Assembly (NCBI GenBank): GCA_946407495.1
Contig: CAMJOB010000004.1
Location: 1-58,975 of the forward strand
Source of the DNA: an uncultured Bacillota bacterium
Lineage (GTDB): Bacteria > Bacillota_I > Bacilli_A > RF39 > UBA660
DNA: 58,975 nt
Direction of reading: 5' to 3'
Below the pieces are notes generated by a model. It was given only the letters and a program-made list of their open reading frames with translations, was not told the origin of the DNA and searched no databases. Position numbers and translations under genes: made by a program. Positions 4,903 through 58,649 of the stretch are shown here, piece by piece. The stretch's first letter is position 1. Every line of letters starts with the position of its first letter.

Positions 4903-6079
4903 AGTCTCTAATTGCTTTTAATACAGGTTGTAATGGTGTTCCATCATCACTATAATAGAAGAATTTAACAGTAGCCATTTTACCTATAAGTTCATCGAGG
5001 TCTTTACGATATTGGTCTTTAAGTTCACGAGAACCCATTGGCTTAGCTTTAAATTCAATTCCATCAGCAGTTTTTAATGTAAAACACATATCTTCATCTC
5101 TAAGTCCTTCAGATATACCTGTGATTTCAAACTCTGCATCTTGATACATTTTGAACTTAATCATTTCAGATCCACGTCCACCATTCTTATATAATCCTTT
5201 AGGATCTCGAACAACACATCCTTCCCAACCTTCTGCAACATATTTATCATGGAGCGCGATAATATTCTCTTTGCCAGAAACCTTTTCTTGCGGAACCATT
5301 TGTACGCGTAAATCGTTATCGGACCAGACCCTGTTTGGATCAAATCCCAAATTGAGTTCGAGGCTGATTCTATTGAGTGTTTGAAGTCGCTCGGAGAAAG
5401 GTTTTGGTTCCATGACATCATAAATGTAATATTCGAGCCAGTCGCAACCATCAGCAGTTTTCTCCATTCGTGCAGCTCCCGAAATTTGTTGTAAAGATTT
5501 TCCATGTTTGTAAAGTTCTCCATCAAGTATAATATTTGGATTATTTTTAAAGAACTCAATAAATTCTGGATTAGTTCTTAATTGATAAGTAGAATAATCA
5601 TAATGACCACCTCCACGAGATGCTGTATGAATTTCTCCGTCTTTCCAATAGAATGAACAACGTACACCATCTATTTTACGACTAGCATACCAAAATTCAG
5701 GTTTATTAATTGTTCTATCGGAAACTTTATCAGCTTGTTTAGCTAACATATGTTTAGCAAAACCGTTAGAGTCAGTTACAATTTCTCCTACTATACTATT
5801 TAATTCTTCAGAAGTATAAGTATCAATAGGATTATCAATTGGTTTATATCCTTTATCAAGTTTTTCTTTAATTAAAGAATTAAATTTAAGTTCAGCCTGT
5901 TCACTAACAGTTCTCTTAGCTTTTCCTTCAGAAATTATAATGTCTGGTTGCTGAGTTCGTTTTCCTCCATATTGATATGTTACTCTTGTAATTAAATAAC
6001 TTCCATCATCCAATAGGGTTTTTTCAAATTCAGCAACTCTAATTTTACCTTTAGCGTCTTTAGTAATAAGTGTATTCAT
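4895..6079 (-). CDS. lig: ATP-dependent DNA ligase
   Basis: KIDGVR adenylation motif, LDGELY, YIYD, EGCVVR, KFK. Confidence 0.93.
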   Translation of the reverse strand: MNTLITKDAKGKIRVAEFEKTLLDDGSYLITRVTYQYGGKRTQQPDIIISEGKAKRTVSEQAELKFNSLIKEKLDKGYKPIDNPIDTYTSEELNSIVGEIVTDSNGFAKHMLAKQADKVSDRTINKPEFWYASRKIDGVRCSFYWKDGEIHTASRGGGHYDYSTYQLRTNPEFIEFFKNNPNIILDGELYKHGKSLQQISGAARMEKTADGCDWLEYYIYDVMEPKPFSERLQTLNRISLELNLGFDPNRVWSDNDLRVQMVPQEKVSGKENIIALHDKYVAEGWEGCVVRDPKGLYKNGGRGSEMIKFKMYQDAEFEITGISEGLRDEDMCFTLKTADGIEFKAKPMGSRELKDQYRKDLDELIGKMATVKFFYYSDDGTPLQPVLKAIRDYE

Positions 6080-8309: not shown

Positions 8310-8821
8310 AAAGAAAGATTATTTTTAAATATATAATAATCTAGCATTTCATTAACCAATTCCTTATGATTAAATGCCCATTTAAAGTTATTAATCTTTT
8401 CAATAGGAATCCATTCAATTTTTTCAACTTCATCTGTTTCACTATAAGAATTAGTTGTAGTAGGAAGATAATCACGTTTTAACAAATAGAAATATCTAAA
8501 TGTTATATTTTGACGTTTATCGCCAAAAGGATCATCATTGATTTTATAAAATACTAAATTATCAGGTTTAACAATAACACCTGTTTCTTCAAATAATTCA
8601 CGAGTTGCAGCGTGTCTTAATGTTTCATTATAATCAAGATAACCACAACATAAGTTCCAAGATCCAACAAATTCTGGATCTGGAGTTCCTTTACCTCTTT
8701 GTGATGCAAGAACATAGTATTTACCTTTTACTTTAGCAACAATAAGAGTTACTACACAAACAGAACGAGAAAGCCATCCTATTGGATTGCCTTCTATATC
8801 ATAACAAGGTTGATTTTTCAT
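8237..8821 (-). CDS. Nudix hydrolase (possible ADP-ribose pyrophosphatase)
   Basis: Nudix box GYLDYNETLRHAATRELFEETG; AFNH C-terminal motif; substrate is inferred. Confidence 0.88.
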   Translation of the reverse strand: MKNQPCYDIEGNPIGWLSRSVCVVTLIVAKVKGKYYVLASQRGKGTPDPEFVGSWNLCCGYLDYNETLRHAATRELFEETGVIVKPDNLVFYKINDDPFGDKRQNITFRYFYLLKRDYLPTTTNSYSETDEVEKIEWIPIEKINNFKWAFNHKELVNEMLDYYIFKNNLSLWQRISTKVKNMKSKLVKKVVSSL

Positions 8822-40207: not shown

Positions 40208-41075
40208 CAAAAAATTAACATTTATTAACAATAAAAATTATAAGTATCCACATAAATTTCTTATATTTACATATATTAAATAAAATAAAAAATTATGGAA
40301 ATTTTAAAAGATTATTGTAAAAATCGAAAATTAATCACATTAATTTGTGATTGTTGTGGTAAAGAATTTCAAAAACCACTTTCCGAATATAACAGAAATG
40401 TTAAATTAGGAAGAAAAAATTATTGTTCTAGAATTTGTTCTGGAAAATCTAATAAAAATTTATCATTATCAAATGAAAAATATGATATTTCACAACATTC
40501 TGGAAATAGAAGAGATGAATTTAGTCCTTTTAGATATACAATGAGATGTATAAAACGTAGATCTAAAGAAATAAATATTGATTTAGAATATTTAAAATTA
40601 ATATGGGAACAACAAAATGGAATATGTCCTTATACTAATCTTAAATTAACATTACCAGAAGATAATAATATAAATAATTTAAATATAATTTATCGAGCAT
40701 CTTTAGATAGAATTGATTCATCTAAAGGATATATAAAAGGTAATGTTCAATTTGTATCAACTCCTATTAATTTAATGAAACAACAAATGTCTGATTTAGA
40801 AACTAAAAAATTTCTAAAACAAATTTCTTCCTATACTTCTACTTTCATAGAAGATTAGACTATATCATCATCTCTTAATGAGATGTCGGACGCTCAAGTT
40901 GGTAATTAAGAACACTATAGTTCTCCAATAGTCGTTGCACTTTTATAGAGTGTACTCTATACTTAGCTCAGGATTGGCATGAAATAAAGCTTATCTTGAG
41001 CTTTATTTTTTAGCGTTCCCTGAATTCATCCGATGTTTTTAACTATAAATCACTTTATAGCTGGTCCAACTATTA
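40208..41075 (-). mobile_element. Group I intron in the tmRNA T-loop
   Basis: P1 GGUU/GACC with U.G; terminal G at 40208; R GCAACGACUA; S GAUAUAGUCU. Confidence 0.9.
40295..40858 (+). CDS. Putative His-Me finger homing endonuclease, antisense within the tmRNA intron
   Basis: N-terminal CDCCGKEF..YCS..C zinc finger; QNGICPYT..SLDRIDSSKGY..GNVQ..N.MK; the only convincing plus-strand gene. Confidence 0.85.
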   Translation: MEILKDYCKNRKLITLICDCCGKEFQKPLSEYNRNVKLGRKNYCSRICSGKSNKNLSLSNEKYDISQHSGNRRDEFSPFRYTMRCIKRRSKEINIDLEYLKLIWEQQNGICPYTNLKLTLPEDNNINNLNIIYRASLDRIDSSKGYIKGNVQFVSTPINLMKQQMSDLETKKFLKQISSYTSTFIED

Positions 41076-41410
41076 AACCCTCGTCTTACTAAAATATCAT
41101 CGAAATTTGTACACGCTTTTCAATTTTTAAAAGTTTTCTTCTTTAGGCTGACTGAATGTCAGCTCCACCAATTAGTTTTGTGAAAACTAATAAAACTTTG
41201 CTCATTTAATTACTGCCGATGCCAGCGATGAATACTATTTCTGTTCCTCGGTAAGTATTCTGTGTTTCCCGGGTATCATACTTAATTTAATTAAGCAGCG
41301 ATACGGAAGATTGTTACATCATTTCCATTTAAATTGTTTGTTGTCTTTCCAACTGTCTTTGCGTGATTTCTTTGCTTCTCTTAGCAATCAAAACCAAATA
41401 CCCCCAAATT

Positions 41411-43934: not shown

Positions 43935-44011
43935 CAAAACGCTTTAATTAGTTCATTGAAATTTAGGAAATTTTTTCAGAGTTAATTACATTTATTTGCT
44001 GTAAGCGTTTT
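43935..44011 (-). ncRNA. YACAGCAAA element 1
   Basis: AAAACGCU-UACAGCAAA...AGCGUUUU-G. Confidence 0.8.
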
Positions 44012-44134: not shown

Positions 44135-44200
44135 CAGAATACTTTTATAAAGCATCTTCCCCTTAAAAATGTATTTTACAAAATTTGCTGTAAGTATTCT
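44135..44200 (-). ncRNA. YACAGCAAA element 2
   Basis: AGAAUACU-UACAGCAAA...AGUAUUCU-G. Confidence 0.8.
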
Positions 44201-45329: not shown

Positions 45330-45398
45330 CAGAATACATTTGTTATAATTTCAGTCCAATTTAAATTATTTTAAAAATTAATTTGCTGTATGTATTCT
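45330..45398 (-). ncRNA. YACAGCAAA element 3
   Basis: AGAAUACA-UACAGCAAA...UGUAUUCU-G. Confidence 0.8.
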
Positions 45399-45425
45399 TT
45401 AATTATGCCTATATTGTAAAAATAG

Positions 45426-45497
45426 AGGCTCTACTCAGAATCGAACTGAGATTTTCGGGTTACAAAGCCGAGGTAATAACCATTATACTAAAGAGCC
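45426..45497 (-). tRNA. tRNA-Thr(UGU)
   Basis: Cloverleaf; loop UUUGUAA. Confidence 0.88.
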
Positions 45498-45764: not shown

Positions 45765-46067
45765 ATATTTTAACAAATTTTAAATATAGTAAATAGTGAA
45801 CATTCTACTTCTCTTTTTTGGCGGGCGGTGCGCTTATCACTAATTATCACACACTCCACATACATAGAATATCGTTTTACTATATTATATTAAACAAAGT
45901 CCGTTCTCTTCTTTCCCTAAGTCTAAACGATGGCTAATGTCACCAAAACTCCATTAATAGGGTTACCTGGTTGCTGTTTATTCTATCAACTTATTTGAAC
46001 TATTATTCGCATCGAATGCCTTGAATTACTCCAAGTAACGGCTGCGCCTGTAATACTTTGTTTATTG

Positions 46068-46798
46068 TACCCTTACCAAGAATCGAACTTGGATCAATAG
46101 TTTAGCCTGCCACTCTATGTTACCATAGCCAAATAACTCTTGGATTCTAACCAAGAAACCGCCATTACCTCAAGCATCACAACCATGCTTTCGACTTTGC
46201 ATTACTGCTTTCAGATAGTTTACATATAGGTTGCTCTACTATCATCAGTTATTTGTTGTGGTCTGGAACATATTATAACCATATTGAAATTCTCGCGCAA
46301 GTAGTGTCTGTTTCAGTGATAGCAGTTCATGTAAGCCTGCTTATTTGACCGTCCCACAATTTCAACTTAGGCTGTACCTCTATGTTCTCTACACGTTTAT
46401 GAGAATAAACAATATTTACGAATTGCCACCAATAAATATTGTACAATGGAAATCAAGGAGTCTACAAGGAGGCAATTGCTTCTGCTTGTACTTTCTTTTC
46501 ATTCTATTCTCAACTTAGCTCGGTATAATCCTATTCCATTATTGTTTAGGAAAATCTTCTAACAGCACTCCTATGGAATTACCCAATGGTCTGTCGCCTT
46601 TATCATTTCAAAAGAGGGTTGAACATTTAGTCTTTCTCTTTTATAGATAGTAAGACTCAAGGTTACTGGTTTAAGATTCATACTTCTAACCTTTTTTCTG
46701 AAGGACTTCCACCGAATTAGGATACTTCTACTATGGGATTTCTCGCCATAGCACTCCTTATTTGAAGACTACTGCTCTATCCATTGAGCTATAAGGGC
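46068..46798 (-). tRNA. tRNA-Arg(UCU); exons 46765-46798 and 46068-46105
   Basis: Joined exons give a cloverleaf with loop CUU|CUAA. Confidence 0.9.
46106..46764 (-). mobile_element. Group I intron in the tRNA-Arg anticodon (659 nt, no ORF)
   Basis: Follows U34 and ends in G; P1 with AAGG; R GUAGAGAACAU pairs with S AUAUGUUCC; P9 CUAUG-GUAA-CAUAG. Confidence 0.85.
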
Positions 46799-46804
46799 AT
46801 CATT

Positions 46805-46867
46805 CAGAATACGTTTTTTAATTTAAACTACTTTTAATTATATTAATAAATTTGCTGTATGTATTCT
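46805..46867 (-). ncRNA. YACAGCAAA element 4
   Basis: AGAAUACA-UACAGCAAA...CGUAUUCU-G. Confidence 0.8.
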
Positions 46868-49306: not shown

Positions 49307-49732
49307 TTAAAGTTTTCCAAGATCCATATATTCTAATGTATCATTATATTCAATATTATCTTTAAGATAATAAGCAGTCATATACACTGTTGATTGTTGA
49401 TGATAAAAATGTAGTTGAATTATATTATCGTACTTGAATGGTAAAGTATACCTTAATCGATCAGATATAGTAAGTTGTGGTAACTTATCTGCATTTGAAT
49501 CAATTACATTTGTATCAAGTATATTTGTACCAAGTAATTTAGGTATTTGAATATCATTATATTCTACAACTTGCATCTTTGGTTTTTCCCACGGATATTT
49601 TGCTTCATATATTGCAGCAAAACTTGTTGTAGCAAATCGTATCTGTGTAGCATCTTTATGCTTAATTAATATAAGACTTTCTAAATTACTATCAACAGTT
49701 ACTTTGAACTCATCTTCTTCAAAAATTTTCAT
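49307..49732 (-). CDS. Hypothetical protein
   Basis: ORF track. Confidence 0.65.
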   Translation of the reverse strand: MKIFEEDEFKVTVDSNLESLILIKHKDATQIRFATTSFAAIYEAKYPWEKPKMQVVEYNDIQIPKLLGTNILDTNVIDSNADKLPQLTISDRLRYTLPFKYDNIIQLHFYHQQSTVYMTAYYLKDNIEYNDTLEYMDLGKL

Positions 49733-49754
49733 AATTATTTATTTTATATTAAAG

Positions 49755-49828
49755 TGGACCCCCTCAGGGTTGAACTGAGACTCTCACAGCTTATGAGGCT
49801 GGTGTTTTAACCTTTAAACTAGAAGTCC
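49755..49828 (-). tRNA. tRNA with CAU anticodon (Met or Ile2)
   Basis: Cloverleaf; loop CUCAUAA. Confidence 0.85.
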
Positions 49829-49951
49829 TTATTCCCATCTATACGTACTTCCCCAGCTGAGGGAACGATGGGAACTTTCTATTTGTGCGTCCGTCGGCTT
49901 TACCATCTTTACGGTAGGTCTGCGCAGTGCCGCTGCCACAAATATACAATT

Positions 49952-50161
49952 TTATTCTGATTTTGTTGTATGGGTTTTAAAGGCTGAGCCTATAATACTA
50001 AGTAACACACTACAACCAAATGCTTGCCAATATGTTAGAATTGGAGCAGTCTTCCAAAACAATGGAGCTAACCAATTCCATAATGTTTGAAGACACCATG
50101 CTTCAAAAAAACTTAACGCAATAATTACTACGATAAGTAAAAAACATCCTAATTTACTCAT
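49952..50161 (-). CDS. Small membrane protein
   Basis: LWNWL.P..LTYWQAFG motif. Confidence 0.7.
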   Translation of the reverse strand: MSKLGCFLLIVVIIALSFFEAWCLQTLWNWLAPLFWKTAPILTYWQAFGCSVLLSIIGSAFKTHTTKSE

Positions 50162-50413
50162 TTTTATTAATTTAAGTTTGTATAAACAAAAAATGCTTAG
50201 CTTCTAATGGCTAAACATTCTTCGATTTCCTTCTTTCGACTGAAAGATGAACTCAATTTTCAAAAAATTTGGAATAAAGCCAACAAATAGGAGCAAATAT
50301 AATTGATACTATTCCTGTGAATATTACTCCAATAAAAGCCGCTATTATTATAAATAAACTTATAATAGGCGATAAAATAAAAAGTATAGCTTTCATAATT
50401 TTTTATTTTTTAA

Positions 50414-50536
50414 CAGAATACTATAAAAAATTCGCGTTCTACCACTGAACTACACTACCTGTTACAGTAGAGAAGGGAATCGAACCCATGTTACGGCATT
50501 ACAAGTGCTAATTTAATAATTTGCTGTGAGTATTCT
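50414..50536 (-). ncRNA. YACAGCAAA element 5 with permuted tRNA domain
   Basis: AGAAUACU-CACAGCAAA...anticodon, T, closed acceptor and D arms...AGUAUUCU-G. Confidence 0.85.
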
Positions 50537-50556
50537 TTTTACTTATATTTTAATTT

Positions 50557-50985
50557 TTATTTAATTCCAATAATGGTATCGAAATCAAAATCATCCATAA
50601 TGTGAATATTTTTAGTTTGTCCATTTAAAGGAGGTGACAATCTAATAGTCATACTTTTTTGACTTCCAATTTCTTTAATAGGAATTAAAATAACTTTATC
50701 TAAAGGAACTATATAACAAGCAATATAATCAACATCATTTTCATATGTTGTATAATGTTTATTAGTTGTATGATTAGTACTACTTGCACATGGACATTCT
50801 ACTGAATTATATTTAGTAATTTGTCCACAATATTTAATCTGAATTTTATTTAATTTACCATTAAACTCTGCTATTAAATCATATCTTGCAGAATCTCCAA
50901 AAGGTAAACAACACTGTATACCTCTTTTAGTAAATTCAGCTAATACAATAGCTTCACCAATATTTCCTTTTTCTTTCGTTATCAT
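50557..50985 (-). CDS. Free-standing PD-(D/E)XK homing endonuclease (I-Ssp6803I-like)
   Basis: TKEKGNIGE..PFGD..RYDLI..KIQIK..Y..DVDY. Confidence 0.85.
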   Translation of the reverse strand: MITKEKGNIGEAIVLAEFTKRGIQCCLPFGDSARYDLIAEFNGKLNKIQIKYCGQITKYNSVECPCASSTNHTTNKHYTTYENDVDYIACYIVPLDKVILIPIKEIGSQKSMTIRLSPPLNGQTKNIHIMDDFDFDTIIGIK

Positions 50986-50989
50986 TTTG

Positions 50990-51062
50990 TACTTCCACTG
51001 AGAGTTGAACTCAGATAACCCAAATTAAAAGTTTGGTGCTCTACCAATTAAGCTATGGAAGC
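50990..51062 (-). tRNA. tRNA-Lys(UUU)
   Basis: Cloverleaf; loop CUUUUAA. Confidence 0.92.
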
Positions 51063-51141
51063 TAAATAAATTAAATTAAACAAATTATAATCAAATTAGC
51101 GTTACCCAGACACACCACGTGGAGGTTTTGATTATGTGTCC

Positions 51142-51212
51142 TTGCGGTAGTGGGAATTGAACCCCTCTTTAAGGTTATGAGCCTTATGTGCGACCATCAC
51201 ACTGCTACCGCG
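51142..51212 (-). tRNA. tRNA-Met(CAU), initiator-like 5' end, short T stem
   Basis: CGCGG 5' end with C.A mismatch; loop CUCAUAA. Confidence 0.75.
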
Positions 51213-51479: not shown

Positions 51480-51582
51480 CAGAAAGCAAAATATCAGTTT
51501 AATTTAACCGCTATTCTTCTAAATCTTTAATGAGTTCTATTTTTAATTACAATGAAAAAAGTAAATTTGCTGTATGCTTTCT
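51480..51582 (-). ncRNA. YACAGCAAA element 6
   Basis: AGAAAGCA-UACAGCAAA...UGCUUUCU-G. Confidence 0.8.
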
Positions 51583-52070: not shown

Positions 52071-52153
52071 CGGAATACTGATGGATTTGAACCATTTAAA
52101 ACAATATAATCAGTATTATTTATTAACCATAAAATATTTGCTGTAAGTATTCC
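52071..52153 (-). ncRNA. YACAGCAAA element 7 with cloverleaf-like insert
   Basis: GGAAUACU-UACAGCAAA..D-like, CUGAUUA loop, T arm..AGUAUUCC-G. Confidence 0.85.
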
Positions 52154-52262: not shown

Positions 52263-52342
52263 CAGAATAGTATATTATAATGCTTTTTACATGTCTTTTT
52301 TCTTAAGTTTAAATAATTATAAAATTTTGCTGTGACTATTCT
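52263..52342 (-). ncRNA. YACAGCAAA element 8
   Basis: AGAAUAGU-CACAGCAAA...ACUAUUCU-G. Confidence 0.8.
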
Positions 52343-53422: not shown

Positions 53423-53515
53423 CGAACGAGAAGCATAAGATTATTTCTCATAAGATACACACACGTTAAACTTAACTTTGATTAATGCTAAAAATTAATT
53501 TGCTGTGTCTCGTTC
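53423..53515 (-). ncRNA. YACAGCAAA element 9 (directly downstream of the TROVE-like gene)
   Basis: GAACGAGA-CACAGCAAA...UCUCGUUC-G. Confidence 0.8.
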
Positions 53516-58292: not shown

Positions 58293-58374
58293 TTTACCCA
58301 TCGTTGGACTTTCACCAATCCAGATTGCTTAAGCGCTAATAACAATAATGGGGATTTATTACTAGTAAAAATCG

Positions 58375-58444
58375 CAATCCCTATCGGACTCGAACCGATA
58401 ACCGCTGTTAAAGAACAGTGCTCTCACCATTGAGCTAAGGGATT
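58375..58444 (-). ncRNA. tRNA-like RNA with 4-nt anticodon loop
   Basis: Perfect acceptor, D and T arms; CUGUU-CUUU-AACAG. Confidence 0.8.
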
Positions 58445-58532: not shown

Positions 58533-58649
58533 TAGATATAACAGGATTCGAACCTGTGACCCCGCGCCGTATCATATAAATGATGTTAGTATTATGAATG
58601 TACACTCAAAACCCGAGTCGCTACTCTAAACCAACTGAGTTATATATCT
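58533..58649 (-). ncRNA. tRNA-like RNA with multibranch insert replacing the anticodon arm
   Basis: AGAUAUA/UAUAUCU acceptor, canonical D and T arms, three hairpins closed by GCG/CGC. Confidence 0.8.

Follow-up and report, generated by a model that had tools for sequence, protein, structure and literature searches.

The locus

The contig CAMJOB010000004.1 (assembly GCA_946407495.1, from an uncultured Bacillota bacterium) was analysed over its whole length of 58,975 nucleotides (nt). We call this stretch the window, and all positions without a prefix refer to it. Our subject is a repeat on its minus strand, element 5 (50536–50414), which contains the parts of a tRNA in permuted order, together with the family of repeats to which it belongs and a neighbouring gene for a 587-amino-acid (aa) protein with a predicted Ro60 fold. 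The window, contig C4 of a 1.14-Mb, 52-contig, 68%-complete bin, has the content of a large phage. It is AT-rich (29.6% G+C), with all genes on the minus strand, and its phage-type genes include those for sigma-70, NrdD, a DnaB-like helicase, a ligase, a GIY-YIG nuclease and NAD salvage. ARAGORN found 27 tRNAs, spread over 34.9–58.8 kb.

Element 5 contains a permuted tRNA-like domain

Element 5 is enclosed by a terminal stem and carries, 3' of a single-stranded box, an anticodon-like hairpin, a T arm, a loop-closed acceptor helix and a D arm (Table 1). An earlier note, made from the letters of this DNA, had described the last four parts, and all of them were present on the minus strand where it had placed them. 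By inspection we also found the nucleotides of the tertiary contacts, namely U8, A14, G15/C48, G18, G19, A21, G53–C61, U54, U55, C56 and A58. ARAGORN called no tRNA gene in element 5 in its native order. When the block from the acceptor 5' strand through G26 was put before the anticodon-like arm, the program called a 71-nt tRNA-Thr(tgt) at default settings. The 3' half of a tRNA thus lies upstream of the 5' half, and jointly they make up a complete tRNA. Element 5 showed no special closeness to the tRNA-Thr(UGU) of the window; its best match among the window tRNAs was tRNA-Asp (68%).

The succession of T arm, closed acceptor and D arm had been likened to that of the YrlA Y RNAs. This order is indeed the one given for YrlA in the available text of Chen et al. 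2014 (PMC4201824), and the Rfam YrlA model aligned with element 5 end to end, so that the T arms, the closed helices and the D arms of the two coincide. The search that the earlier note had proposed therefore confirmed the arrangement but not membership by score: the alignment reached 24.1 bits (E 0.005 for 351 bases searched, 0.86 window-wide) against a gathering threshold of 69. The acceptor end is sealed by a loop, and so element 5 is not chargeable as made, as had also been claimed. [quoted passage not shown]

The permuted domain is conserved in relatives

A seed alignment was made of 24 elements, which were picked by eye and include element 5. In these, 93.7% of helix cells were paired, compared with 66.5% after shuffling and at most 47.8% when the sequences were slid by 1–3 columns, and 22 of the 24 pairs changed on both sides. 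The covariance model R1 from these 24 relatives gave element 5, itself in the seed, 87.6 bits over positions 1–120. Searching 1.55 Mb with R1 yielded 280 matches at E ≤0.01. None of the best 150 of the 280 is shorter than 100 nt; they represent 109 distinct sequences, drawn from 59 loci and the window. In the alignment of these 109 sequences, which is fitted to the model and leans towards the structure, 95.5% of the cells were paired and all four helices covaried. Compensatory changes were found in 7/7 pairs of the acceptor-like helix (96.5% of cells paired), 4/5 of the T arm and 4/4 of the D arm, and 8/8 pairs of the terminal stem changed on both sides; G53–C61 was invariant (109/109). Conservation of the permuted domain in homologues, named beforehand as the test of the reading, is thus what we observed.

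The anticodon-like arm was less general. At a fixed offset (4 or 5 nt of variable region ahead of the T stem), a canonical arm with at least four of five stem pairs, U33 and R37 occurred in 28 of the 109 sequences, compared with 0–4 at the other 14 offsets. The canonically placed arms show 12 different 'anticodons'. The hairpin of element 5 is present as described, but with so small a share of canonical arms it may equally be the counterpart of the optional 'V' stem-loop of YrlA. Automatic re-ordering followed by ARAGORN had no power as a test of this arm, as it called 94/109 real sequences, 75/109 with the part before the T arm shuffled and 75/109 reversed. Pairing of UGUAA in element interiors with UUACA of the box was also considered and rejected; by eye, the variants do not covary.

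In the locus with the closest relative (L187; protein 67% identical), an element at 8700–8817 has the identical anticodon-like arm and one at 5428 the identical T/acceptor block. Since the features of element 5 are split there over two elements, the cargo is modular. Several relatives seal the acceptor with UUCG or have only 3–4 bp in this helix (L090, L146:8556, L169:13090), and some encode ACCA right after the 3' acceptor strand, e.g. L141:15655–15807 and L132:13270.

Element 5 belongs to a repeat family with a common scaffold

The 5' end of element 5 recurs in the window, with nine matches at up to three mismatches (2.3 expected; 0 of 100 shuffles reached nine), six of them on the minus strand within the tRNA array. 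We scanned for a 7-nt stem, 2 nt, ACAGCAA, 10–230 nt, the complementary stem and a G. This gave 10 elements in the window, which lie in its tRNA array downstream of the 587-aa gene, and none when the sequence was reversed. Their stems differ yet compensate, e.g. GGAAUAC/GUAUUCC and GAAUAG/CUAUUC, and 6 of the 10 end 4–6 nt ahead of a tRNA. The consensus of 332 distinct elements reads A(.96) A(.87) G(.89) ... C(.78) U U/A ACAGCAA A ... U(.78) C(.89) U(.87) G U/A, in which ACAGCAA and the final G are imposed by the scan. The box consensus is YU(U/A)ACAGCAA(A), and ACAGCAA is kept in phages of six host phyla.

Of 457 elements, 172 end 4–10 nt before a tRNA, with a gap of 5 nt in 113 and of 6 nt in 38. 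Given this preferred gap, a cut by RNase P at that tRNA would set the 3' end of the element. A scan of positions 49700–51200 found no promoter-like or terminator-like site on the minus strand.

The interiors vary. No T-loop motif is present in 220 of the 332 distinct elements. Short members bear near-perfect anticodon stem-loops of different tRNAs (UCAAA-CUUUUAA-UUUGA, UAGA-CUUGUAA-UCUA, UCAAA-CUGCUAA-UUUGA), and other cargoes are bare anticodon-like hairpins, lone T arms and ends with encoded ACCA that resemble transfer-messenger RNA (tmRNA). Another permutation occurs as well: 3' acceptor strand, ACCA, loop, 5' strand, D arm, anticodon arm and T arm. In one subgroup (L141:15655–15807, L161:15783–15937 and similar), the interior consists of T arm, CCYYCCC, ACCA, a loop and GGGRRGG. 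It drew weak matches to tmRNA and permuted tmRNA (RF04321) and has the look of a tRNA-like domain of the tmRNA type, with its CCA end encoded, on the same scaffold.

The neighbouring gene encodes a Ro60-like protein

The 587-aa protein has 975 relatives at E ≤1×10−5, many of them on contigs of 100–190 kb. An AlphaFold2 model from 39 sequences (predicted local distance difference test, pLDDT, 83.3; predicted template modelling score, pTM, 0.81) was compared with known structures. The first 11 Foldseek matches in the PDB were all Ro60/TROVE proteins (E 1×10−8 to 2×10−6, ~570 columns). With VIA-align, the top match was 2i91_A (Z 17.9, root-mean-square deviation 4.4, 436 residues aligned), followed by nine further Ro60 entries at Z 13.6–17.7, including D. 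radiodurans Rsr and the Ro60 of Thermus phage phiLo (9l5y, 9kop). The ten best matches were thus all Ro60, with 401–440 residues aligned, compared with Z of at most 10.2 for proteins that matched only in the von Willebrand factor A (vWA) domain. In the model, a helical-repeat ring is followed by a vWA domain with a MIDAS (metal-ion-dependent adhesion site), whose DxSxS motif (D377, S379, S381) is invariant in the 39 sequences. The model indicates that the gene product has the Ro60 fold.

Sequence searches were less telling. The Pfam scan gave DUF7788 and weak DUF2828 matches and none to TROVE, and phmmer against PDB sequences gave nothing below E 0.7. By tblastn the protein reached mycobacteriophage genes annotated 'Ro-like RNA binding protein' (22–24% identity). 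No fused or long forms (1051–3000 aa) were found, which is weak evidence. The ESM Atlas returned only viral DUF2828/DUF7788 clusters and no eukaryotic lead.

The RNA family and the Ro60-like gene occur together

We fetched 80 viral loci around relatives of the 587-aa protein. At least one element was present in 75 of these, with 447 elements in total, all on the strand of the gene, and none in the reversed control. Up to 12 elements occur per locus, interleaved with tRNA genes; 393 lie downstream and 39 upstream of the gene. Two of the five empty loci have fewer than 100 bases downstream. In the opposite direction, a scan of viral contigs with a 17-nt box pattern gave 119 loci, mostly chance matches in coding sequence and ~30 true carriers with several elements per contig. 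Five RNA-first records outside the protein set were searched, and all five encode a Ro60-like protein. The link to Ro/Y biology that the earlier note had drawn is real: the neighbouring gene product is predicted to fold like Ro60, and family and gene were found together from either side.

The pairing persists at 22–25% protein identity in cultured phages of Enterococcus, Bacillus, Listeria, E. coli (Felixounavirus), Fusobacterium, Leptolyngbya and Mycobacterium (Table 1). For these a looser pattern was used, which gave four matches in the reversed controls of nine loci, and elements were judged by adjacency to the gene, AAG/CUG termini and model matches. The element segment of Felixounavirus is 96–100% conserved in 250 records, including Felix O1. 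Partial model matches (positions ~25–111) at junctions of tandem tRNAs were discarded as false positives of the type Chen et al. warned of. Stretches in or near elements carry the labels 'tRNA-Pseudo' or 'tRNA-OTHER' in Citrobacter phage Ci1 (L203:8023–8135) and in Felixounavirus wV8, Si3 and ST11, and permuted tRNA-like members are probably being mis-annotated as broken tRNAs.

Table 1. Parts of element 5, further family members and the Ro60-like gene (positions with an L prefix are in related loci)
Feature	Position	Strand	Remarks
Element 5, whole: A-AG start, terminal stem, box, permuted tRNA-like interior, ...CUG end	50414..50537	minus	123 nt from 50536
Terminal stem, 5' strand AGAAUACU	50536-50529	minus	8 bp with 50422-50415
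Single-stranded box CACAGCAA	50528-50521	minus	directly 3' of stem strand
Linker between box and anticodon-like arm		minus	10 nt
Anticodon-arm-like hairpin UAGCA-CUUGUAA-UGCCG	50510-50494	minus	4/5 stem pairs; U33 and R37 equivalents in loop
UAAC between anticodon-like hairpin and T stem		minus	4 nt
T arm AUGGG-UUCGAUU-CCCUU	50489-50473	minus	one U-U mismatch
Acceptor 3' strand CUCUACU	50472-50466	minus	followed by 6-nt closing loop GUAACA
Acceptor 5' strand GGUAGUG	50459-50453	minus	6/7 pairs with CUCUACU
UA and D arm GUUC-AGUGGUA-GAAC	50452-50436 (D arm 50450-50436)	minus	followed by G and 12-nt linker
Terminal stem, 3' strand AGUAUUCU	50422-50415	minus	followed by G50414
Family element	53423..53515	minus	begins 36 nt after Ro60-like gene
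Family element	52263..52342	minus	4 nt upstream of tRNA-Asp
Family element with T-arm-like hairpin	52071..52153	minus	5 nt upstream of tRNA-Gly
Family element	51480..51582	minus	6 nt upstream of tRNA-Trp
Family element	46805..46867	minus	directly upstream of interrupted tRNA(UCA); Rfam Class I 25.3 bits
Weaker candidate element, box AAACAGCAAC	45863..45986	minus	pattern scan only
Family element	45330..45398	minus	5 nt upstream of tRNA-Ile
Family element	44135..44200	minus	4 nt upstream of tRNA-Ser; Rfam Class I 27.2 bits
Family element	43935..44011	minus	5 nt upstream of tRNA-Phe
Ro60-like gene, 587 aa	53551..55314	minus	Pfam DUF7788 (4e-9), weak DUF2828; phrog_850 'RNA-binding protein' (8e-33)
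Leptolyngbya phage Lbo-JY46, five elements	L199:6923-7275		head to tail from 8 nt past gene, no tRNA between
Fusobacterium phage Fnu1, one element	L200:9889-9947		39 nt upstream of gene
Enterococcus phiSHEF16, three elements	L201		full-length model matches 97.9 and 80.9 bits
Bacillus phage Skywalker, three elements	L202		full-length model match 42.6 bits
Citrobacter phage Ci1	L203:8023-8135		full-length model match only, 44.3 bits; overlaps annotated 'tRNA-Pseudo'
Listeria phage P100, three elements	L204:4686-4951		just upstream of gp165
Felixounavirus fjerdesal, two elements	L205		full-length model match 62.5 bits
Mycobacterium phage DyoEdafos, three elements	L207:5461-5737		between gene and terminator; full-length model match 63.3 bits

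Strain variation and RNA libraries

Element 5 was covered by contigs of four RNA-library runs from sheep and bovine gut metatranscriptomes (three studies); being contigs, these show presence only and not transcription, strand, ends or level. Those of runs X1 and X2 are 100% identical to the window over 50332–50590 and 50348–50704. The other two runs represent related strains, in which the only indels inside element 5 are in its linkers, at 50425 and 50514. One contig of run X7 has 124 other letters in place of 50539–51141, which holds a PD-(D/E)XK gene and tRNA-Lys, and the joint falls exactly on the 5' edge of element 5. The PD-(D/E)XK endonuclease cassette looks mobile.

Interpretation

From the RNA structure, the family and the genomic partnership observed here, we consider it reasonably probable that element 5 is a Y-RNA-like tRNA mimic, made of handle and cargo, that partners the phage Ro60-like protein and is cut from the tRNA-array transcript. 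By analogy we infer that it is freed as a discrete RNA, that the Ro-like protein binds it and what role the ribonucleoprotein has. Element 5 would be a stable non-coding RNA of ~125 nt excised from a long phage transcript. Its first module, a scaffold of AAG, a 7–8-bp stem of free sequence but kept pairing, the box YU(U/A)ACAGCAA and a CUG(U/A) end, would be the binding handle, most likely for the Ro60-like protein, whose gene lies 3 kb upstream on this strand. The second module would be the cargo, in element 5 a full tRNA-shaped fold with a D-loop/T-loop elbow, a canonically placed anticodon-like arm and a looped acceptor; the remaining nine window elements would carry different cargoes. Like YrlA on bacterial Ro60, such an RNA may show a tRNA look-alike to tRNA-recognising proteins or nucleases while held on the Ro-like ring, and the ribonucleoprotein would probably serve RNA surveillance or counter-defence in infection. 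Release from a polycistronic transcript is plausible, with RNase P at the following tRNA trimming the elements; Yrn2 of D. radiodurans is likewise co-transcribed with a tRNA (PMC4201824, in the text available).

Several observations weigh against this reading. The minimum free energy of element 5 (−25.1 kcal/mol) belongs to a different pairing, compared with −13.9 for the cloverleaf-like fold, and the z-score is −1.07. The YrlA score is low in the relatives too (25–40 bits, precisely 25.5–40.1, against 69). Because folding selects another structure and the YrlA score of element 5 is only 24.1 bits, the case rests on the relatives, the seed of which was chosen by eye. The motif GNCGAAN0-1G near the 5' end of YrlA, the presumed Ro60 contact (PMC4201824, text available in part), is absent from the 5' side of element 5 (AGAAUACUCACAGCAA), where the ACAGCAA box takes its place; the sole CGAA, found 3' of the D arm, does not conform to the motif. 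The nearest downstream tRNA is 585 nt away, so that the 3' end of element 5 needs another nuclease. Among the nine cultured phages with the gene, Staphylococcus Alsa_4 had no credible element within 5 kb. Moreover, part of the co-occurrence could reflect a shared neighbourhood, since the RNA family and the gene both lie in tRNA regions, and the RNA-library contigs bear on presence alone.

All parts of a tRNA are present, and the re-ordered element is accepted by ARAGORN. Element 5 could thus be a permuted or split tRNA-Thr(UGU) that RNase P and a 3' nuclease open at the loop, to which CCA is added and which serves translation, perhaps as a nuclease-resistant spare; its pieces would be held by the acceptor helix and the terminal stem, or be rejoined after removal of the stem. 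The 7-bp acceptor helix shared with M. smegmatis YrlA (PMC4201824, as far as available), the ACCA of some relatives and the preference of the anticodon-like arm for its canonical distance fit this proposal. With 7 bp in its acceptor helix, element 5 could conceivably be opened by RNase P and receive CCA in the manner of M. smegmatis YrlA. However, the phage has a normal tRNA-Thr(UGU) at 45425–45497, to which element 5 is no closer than to other tRNAs. The acceptor has G-U at 1–72, G-C at 2–71 and a U-U mismatch at 6–67, and 81 of the 109 relatives have no canonical anticodon arm; several close the acceptor with UUCG or keep just 3–4 bp of it. No bulge-helix-bulge was evident by inspection at the 26/27 break, nor was a splicing-endonuclease Pfam family found among the 36 open reading frames (ORFs) of the window that were scanned. 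A decoding role seems unlikely because a normal tRNA-Thr(UGU) exists and most relatives have no anticodon arm or are sealed by UUCG, and we regard the split-tRNA proposal as improbable.

The positions of the elements raise another question, whether they act only in cis, as processing punctuation or leaders of tRNA transcripts or as recombination borders. The interior of element 5 would then be a rearranged tRNA remnant, and nearness to the gene would reflect a shared tRNA region. The sharply preferred 5-nt gap to a following tRNA, the 6 of 10 window elements so placed, the X7 joint at the edge of element 5 and the minus strand free of promoter-like and terminator-like sites are consistent with this. 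But no tRNA lies within 10 nt of element 5 or of 284 others, and a remnant would not retain compensatory changes in four helices over 109 distinct sequences. In Lbo-JY46 the five elements follow the gene without an intervening tRNA, and in Fnu1 and P100 elements lie right against the gene. From mycobacteriophages to cyanophages the 7-nt box does not vary, a constancy that suggests a trans-acting partner. We therefore think a purely cis-acting role unlikely. Large phage tRNA arrays are thought to offset tRNA-targeting defences, and elements located in such arrays could be free-standing decoys for host tRNA-cleaving defence nucleases, presenting an anticodon arm, a T arm or a tRNA shape. The near-perfect anticodon stem-loops of short members and the 12 'anticodons' of the tRNA-like ones would suit decoys. 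This leaves the invariant box, the terminal stem and the tight linkage to the Ro60-like gene unexplained; many elements have no tRNA-like part, 220 of the 332 distinct ones showing no T-loop motif, and no nuclease target is known. We consider decoys of this kind very improbable.

The Y-RNA-like reading, if right, would matter in several respects. Ro60 and Y RNAs form a conserved system for RNA surveillance, of which the branches in bacteria and viruses are little understood. Large phages would possess a whole array of Y-like RNAs built on a shared handle, among them a nearly perfect tRNA whose ends are sealed. The handle, and not just the tRNA-like part, is conserved in mycobacteriophages, Felix O1, Listeria P100 and cyanophages. 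The rule AAG, stem, YUNACAGCAA ... stem, CUG could serve to detect such RNAs in hundreds of genomes, where they are now unannotated or called 'tRNA-pseudo'.

Further features of the window and of related loci

Several features of the window lie outside this argument. At 58374–58444 (minus strand), both ARAGORN and Rfam (57.4 bits) called a tRNA whose anticodon, UUA, reads the stop codon UAA. Another gene, tRNA-like and with UCA in its anticodon loop (CUUCAAA), at 46060–46800 (minus) is apparently split by a ~0.65-kb insertion: immediately after the element at 46867–46805 comes the 5' part, made up of acceptor, D arm and anticodon stem, and the T arm with the matching 3' acceptor strand lies near 46088–46060. 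Neither ARAGORN nor Rfam called it. The two genes suggest suppressor tRNAs, with a possible reassignment of stop codons late in infection. A group I intron at 40836–41085 (minus; Rfam 97.3 bits) overlaps the opposite-strand ORF 40295–40858 (plus), which has PHROG matches of HNH/endonuclease VII type, and the region 40295–41085 is probably a mobile intron with a homing endonuclease. An Rfam tRNA match of 117 nt at 58533–58649 (minus; 42.8 bits), uncalled by ARAGORN, may be a tRNA with an insertion. A weak match to the hepatitis delta virus-like ribozyme RF02682 (gathering threshold 44) was seen at 51087–51142 (minus; 24.4 bits), between tRNA-Met (51143–51211) and tRNA-Lys (50989–51062), and at L187:5636–5691 (24.5 bits), directly after a tRNA match.

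Upstream of the Ro60-like gene, related loci have a Hatchet ribozyme (L141:5320–5467, 91.5 bits), a RAGATH-1 hammerhead (L141:1208–1284, 76.5) and a tmRNA (L161:7607–8205, 77). In P100, genes for a metal-dependent phosphohydrolase, a tRNA splicing ligase (RtcB-type) and an RNA ligase lie within 5 kb after the Ro60-like gene (L204:7144–11317). This RNA-repair neighbourhood is reminiscent of the bacterial rsr-yrlBA-rtcBA operon. RtcB was not found in the window; one copy is on contig C1 of the same bin (98701–99945).

Comparison with known systems

Element 5 appears to be a novel form of YrlA-type tRNA-mimicking Y RNA, with a scaffold that appears undescribed for phages. Like YrlA (RF02553), it lies near a Ro60-type gene on the same strand (3.0 kb downstream, within the ~4 kb used in PMC4201824, as far as its text is available), its 5' end pairs with its 3' end in a terminal stem, and several Y-like RNAs occur per locus. 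It shares with YrlA the T arm, loop-closed acceptor and D arm, the canonical T- and D-loop nucleotides and an optional extra hairpin upstream of the T arm. Binding by Ro60 in vivo and T and D loops modified by TruB and DusA count as further marks of YrlA. Unlike in YrlA, the hairpin that precedes the T arm resembles an anticodon arm and has its canonical place, as many as 12 elements in a locus stand among tRNA genes, and the candidate partner is a DUF2828/DUF7788 Ro60-like protein without a Pfam TROVE match. The available text on YrlA, an RNA encoded beside the Ro60 gene, reports YrlA-like sequences in 22 phages (PMC4201824), and some mycobacteriophage tRNA-like members may already be among these.

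Phages with Ro60 and Y-like RNAs are known. The Ro60 of Thermus phage phiLo binds two phage Y-like RNAs, Yrl1 and Yrl2 (PMC12135203, text available in part). As in the window, a phage Ro60 homologue is adjoined by phage Y-like RNAs, and by structure the phiLo protein ranks with the best matches to the 587-aa protein. The phiLo RNAs were chosen by a CGAA motif in a stem-bulge-stem, whereas neither a tRNA-like domain nor an ACAGCAA box is described in the available parts of that paper (PMC12135203). A survey of jumbo phages speaks, in the portion at hand, of ROT/TROVE proteins 'with a tRNA-like partner'. In phage Bas63, the Ro60-like gp130, encoded directly upstream of tRNA genes, counters the ppl defence system, and the authors guessed that some of the 'tRNA genes' are Y RNAs (preprint PMC11482910, text available in part). 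Our family provides concrete RNA candidates for this counter-defence protein, whose RNA partners had been guessed. The cultured Felixounavirus locus in Table 1 bears elements. Bas63 presumably is a Felixounavirus too.

Permuted tRNA genes occur in the red alga Cyanidioschyzon merolae, and permuted (two-piece) tmRNA genes are collected in Rfam as RF04321 (tmRNA_permuted). As in these, the 3' part of the tRNA fold is encoded ahead of the 5' part in element 5, and the ACCA after the 3' acceptor strand and the weak RF04321/tmRNA matches of some relatives recall permuted tmRNA genes. In contrast to permuted tRNA genes, the break is at 26/27 and is bridged by the conserved stem-plus-box scaffold, and a tRNA-Thr from element 5 would be redundant with the normal tRNA-Thr(UGU).

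The scaffold also resembles the Class I RNAs of Dictyostelium. Their hallmarks are an AAG start, a 6-bp terminal stem kept in pairing but not in sequence, a CUGU end and, adjoining the 5' strand of the stem, a motif of 11 unpaired nt (Kjellin et al. 2021, PMC7919456); the available parts of that paper report none outside Dictyostelia and name as the sole identified direct binder Rnp1A, a protein with RNA-recognition motifs that is not Ro-like. The Rfam Class I model (RF01414) gave sub-threshold matches in the window (27.2, 25.3 and, for element 5, 17.9 bits) and in three related loci (30.7 in L141, 30.4, 25.8 and 22.8; gathering threshold 41.5), and all seven coincide end to end with family elements. 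Avesson et al. are said to have described four Class I-binding proteins in 2011. Our literature searches found nothing linking Class I RNAs to Ro/TROVE proteins or Dictyostelium to Ro60/Y RNA; literature mentioning DUF2828 concerned plants and a tardigrade, with no Dictyostelium link found, and a search on the box sequence gave only primers and unrelated matches.

The Rfam Class I consensus is GaUcuCCUUACAGCAA...GagAuCUG, and its motif ...CCUUACAGCAA can be set beside the phage consensus CU(U/A)ACAGCAA(A). Since the two agree, the architecture is the same nucleotide for nucleotide, bar one stem base pair. Like Class I RNAs, the phage elements have an AAG start, a short covarying terminal stem (8/8 pairs), the box CUUACAGCAA beside the 5' stem strand, a CUG end followed by U or A and a variable remainder; short phage members measure 55–80 nt. 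The differences are the scores of 17.9–30.7 bits against 41.5, and the cargoes of 100–200 nt in many phage members. Class I RNAs have 42–65 nt and a Dictyostelium upstream sequence element (DUSE) ~60 nt upstream, whereas element 5 has 123 nt and no promoter-like site, the DUSE itself not having been searched for. The eukaryotic Class I genes are scattered and polymerase-driven, whereas the phage genes are those of bacterial viruses and stand among the tRNAs of one operon.

Tentatively, and with the odds against it, the ACAGCAA-box RNAs might be the cognate RNAs of a second, DUF2828-type branch of Ro60 present in phages of at least six bacterial phyla, with the dictyostelid Class I RNAs belonging to the same family, whether inherited or captured from a phage or bacterium. 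In that case, Class I RNAs would be Y-RNA analogues whose conserved box and stem form a handle for a Ro-like protein, and phages would display interchangeable cargoes on that handle, from anticodon arms and T arms to whole closed tRNAs and tmRNA-like domains. The role of Class I RNAs has been open since 2004, and the match yields a direct question: do they bind a Ro-like or DUF2828 protein?

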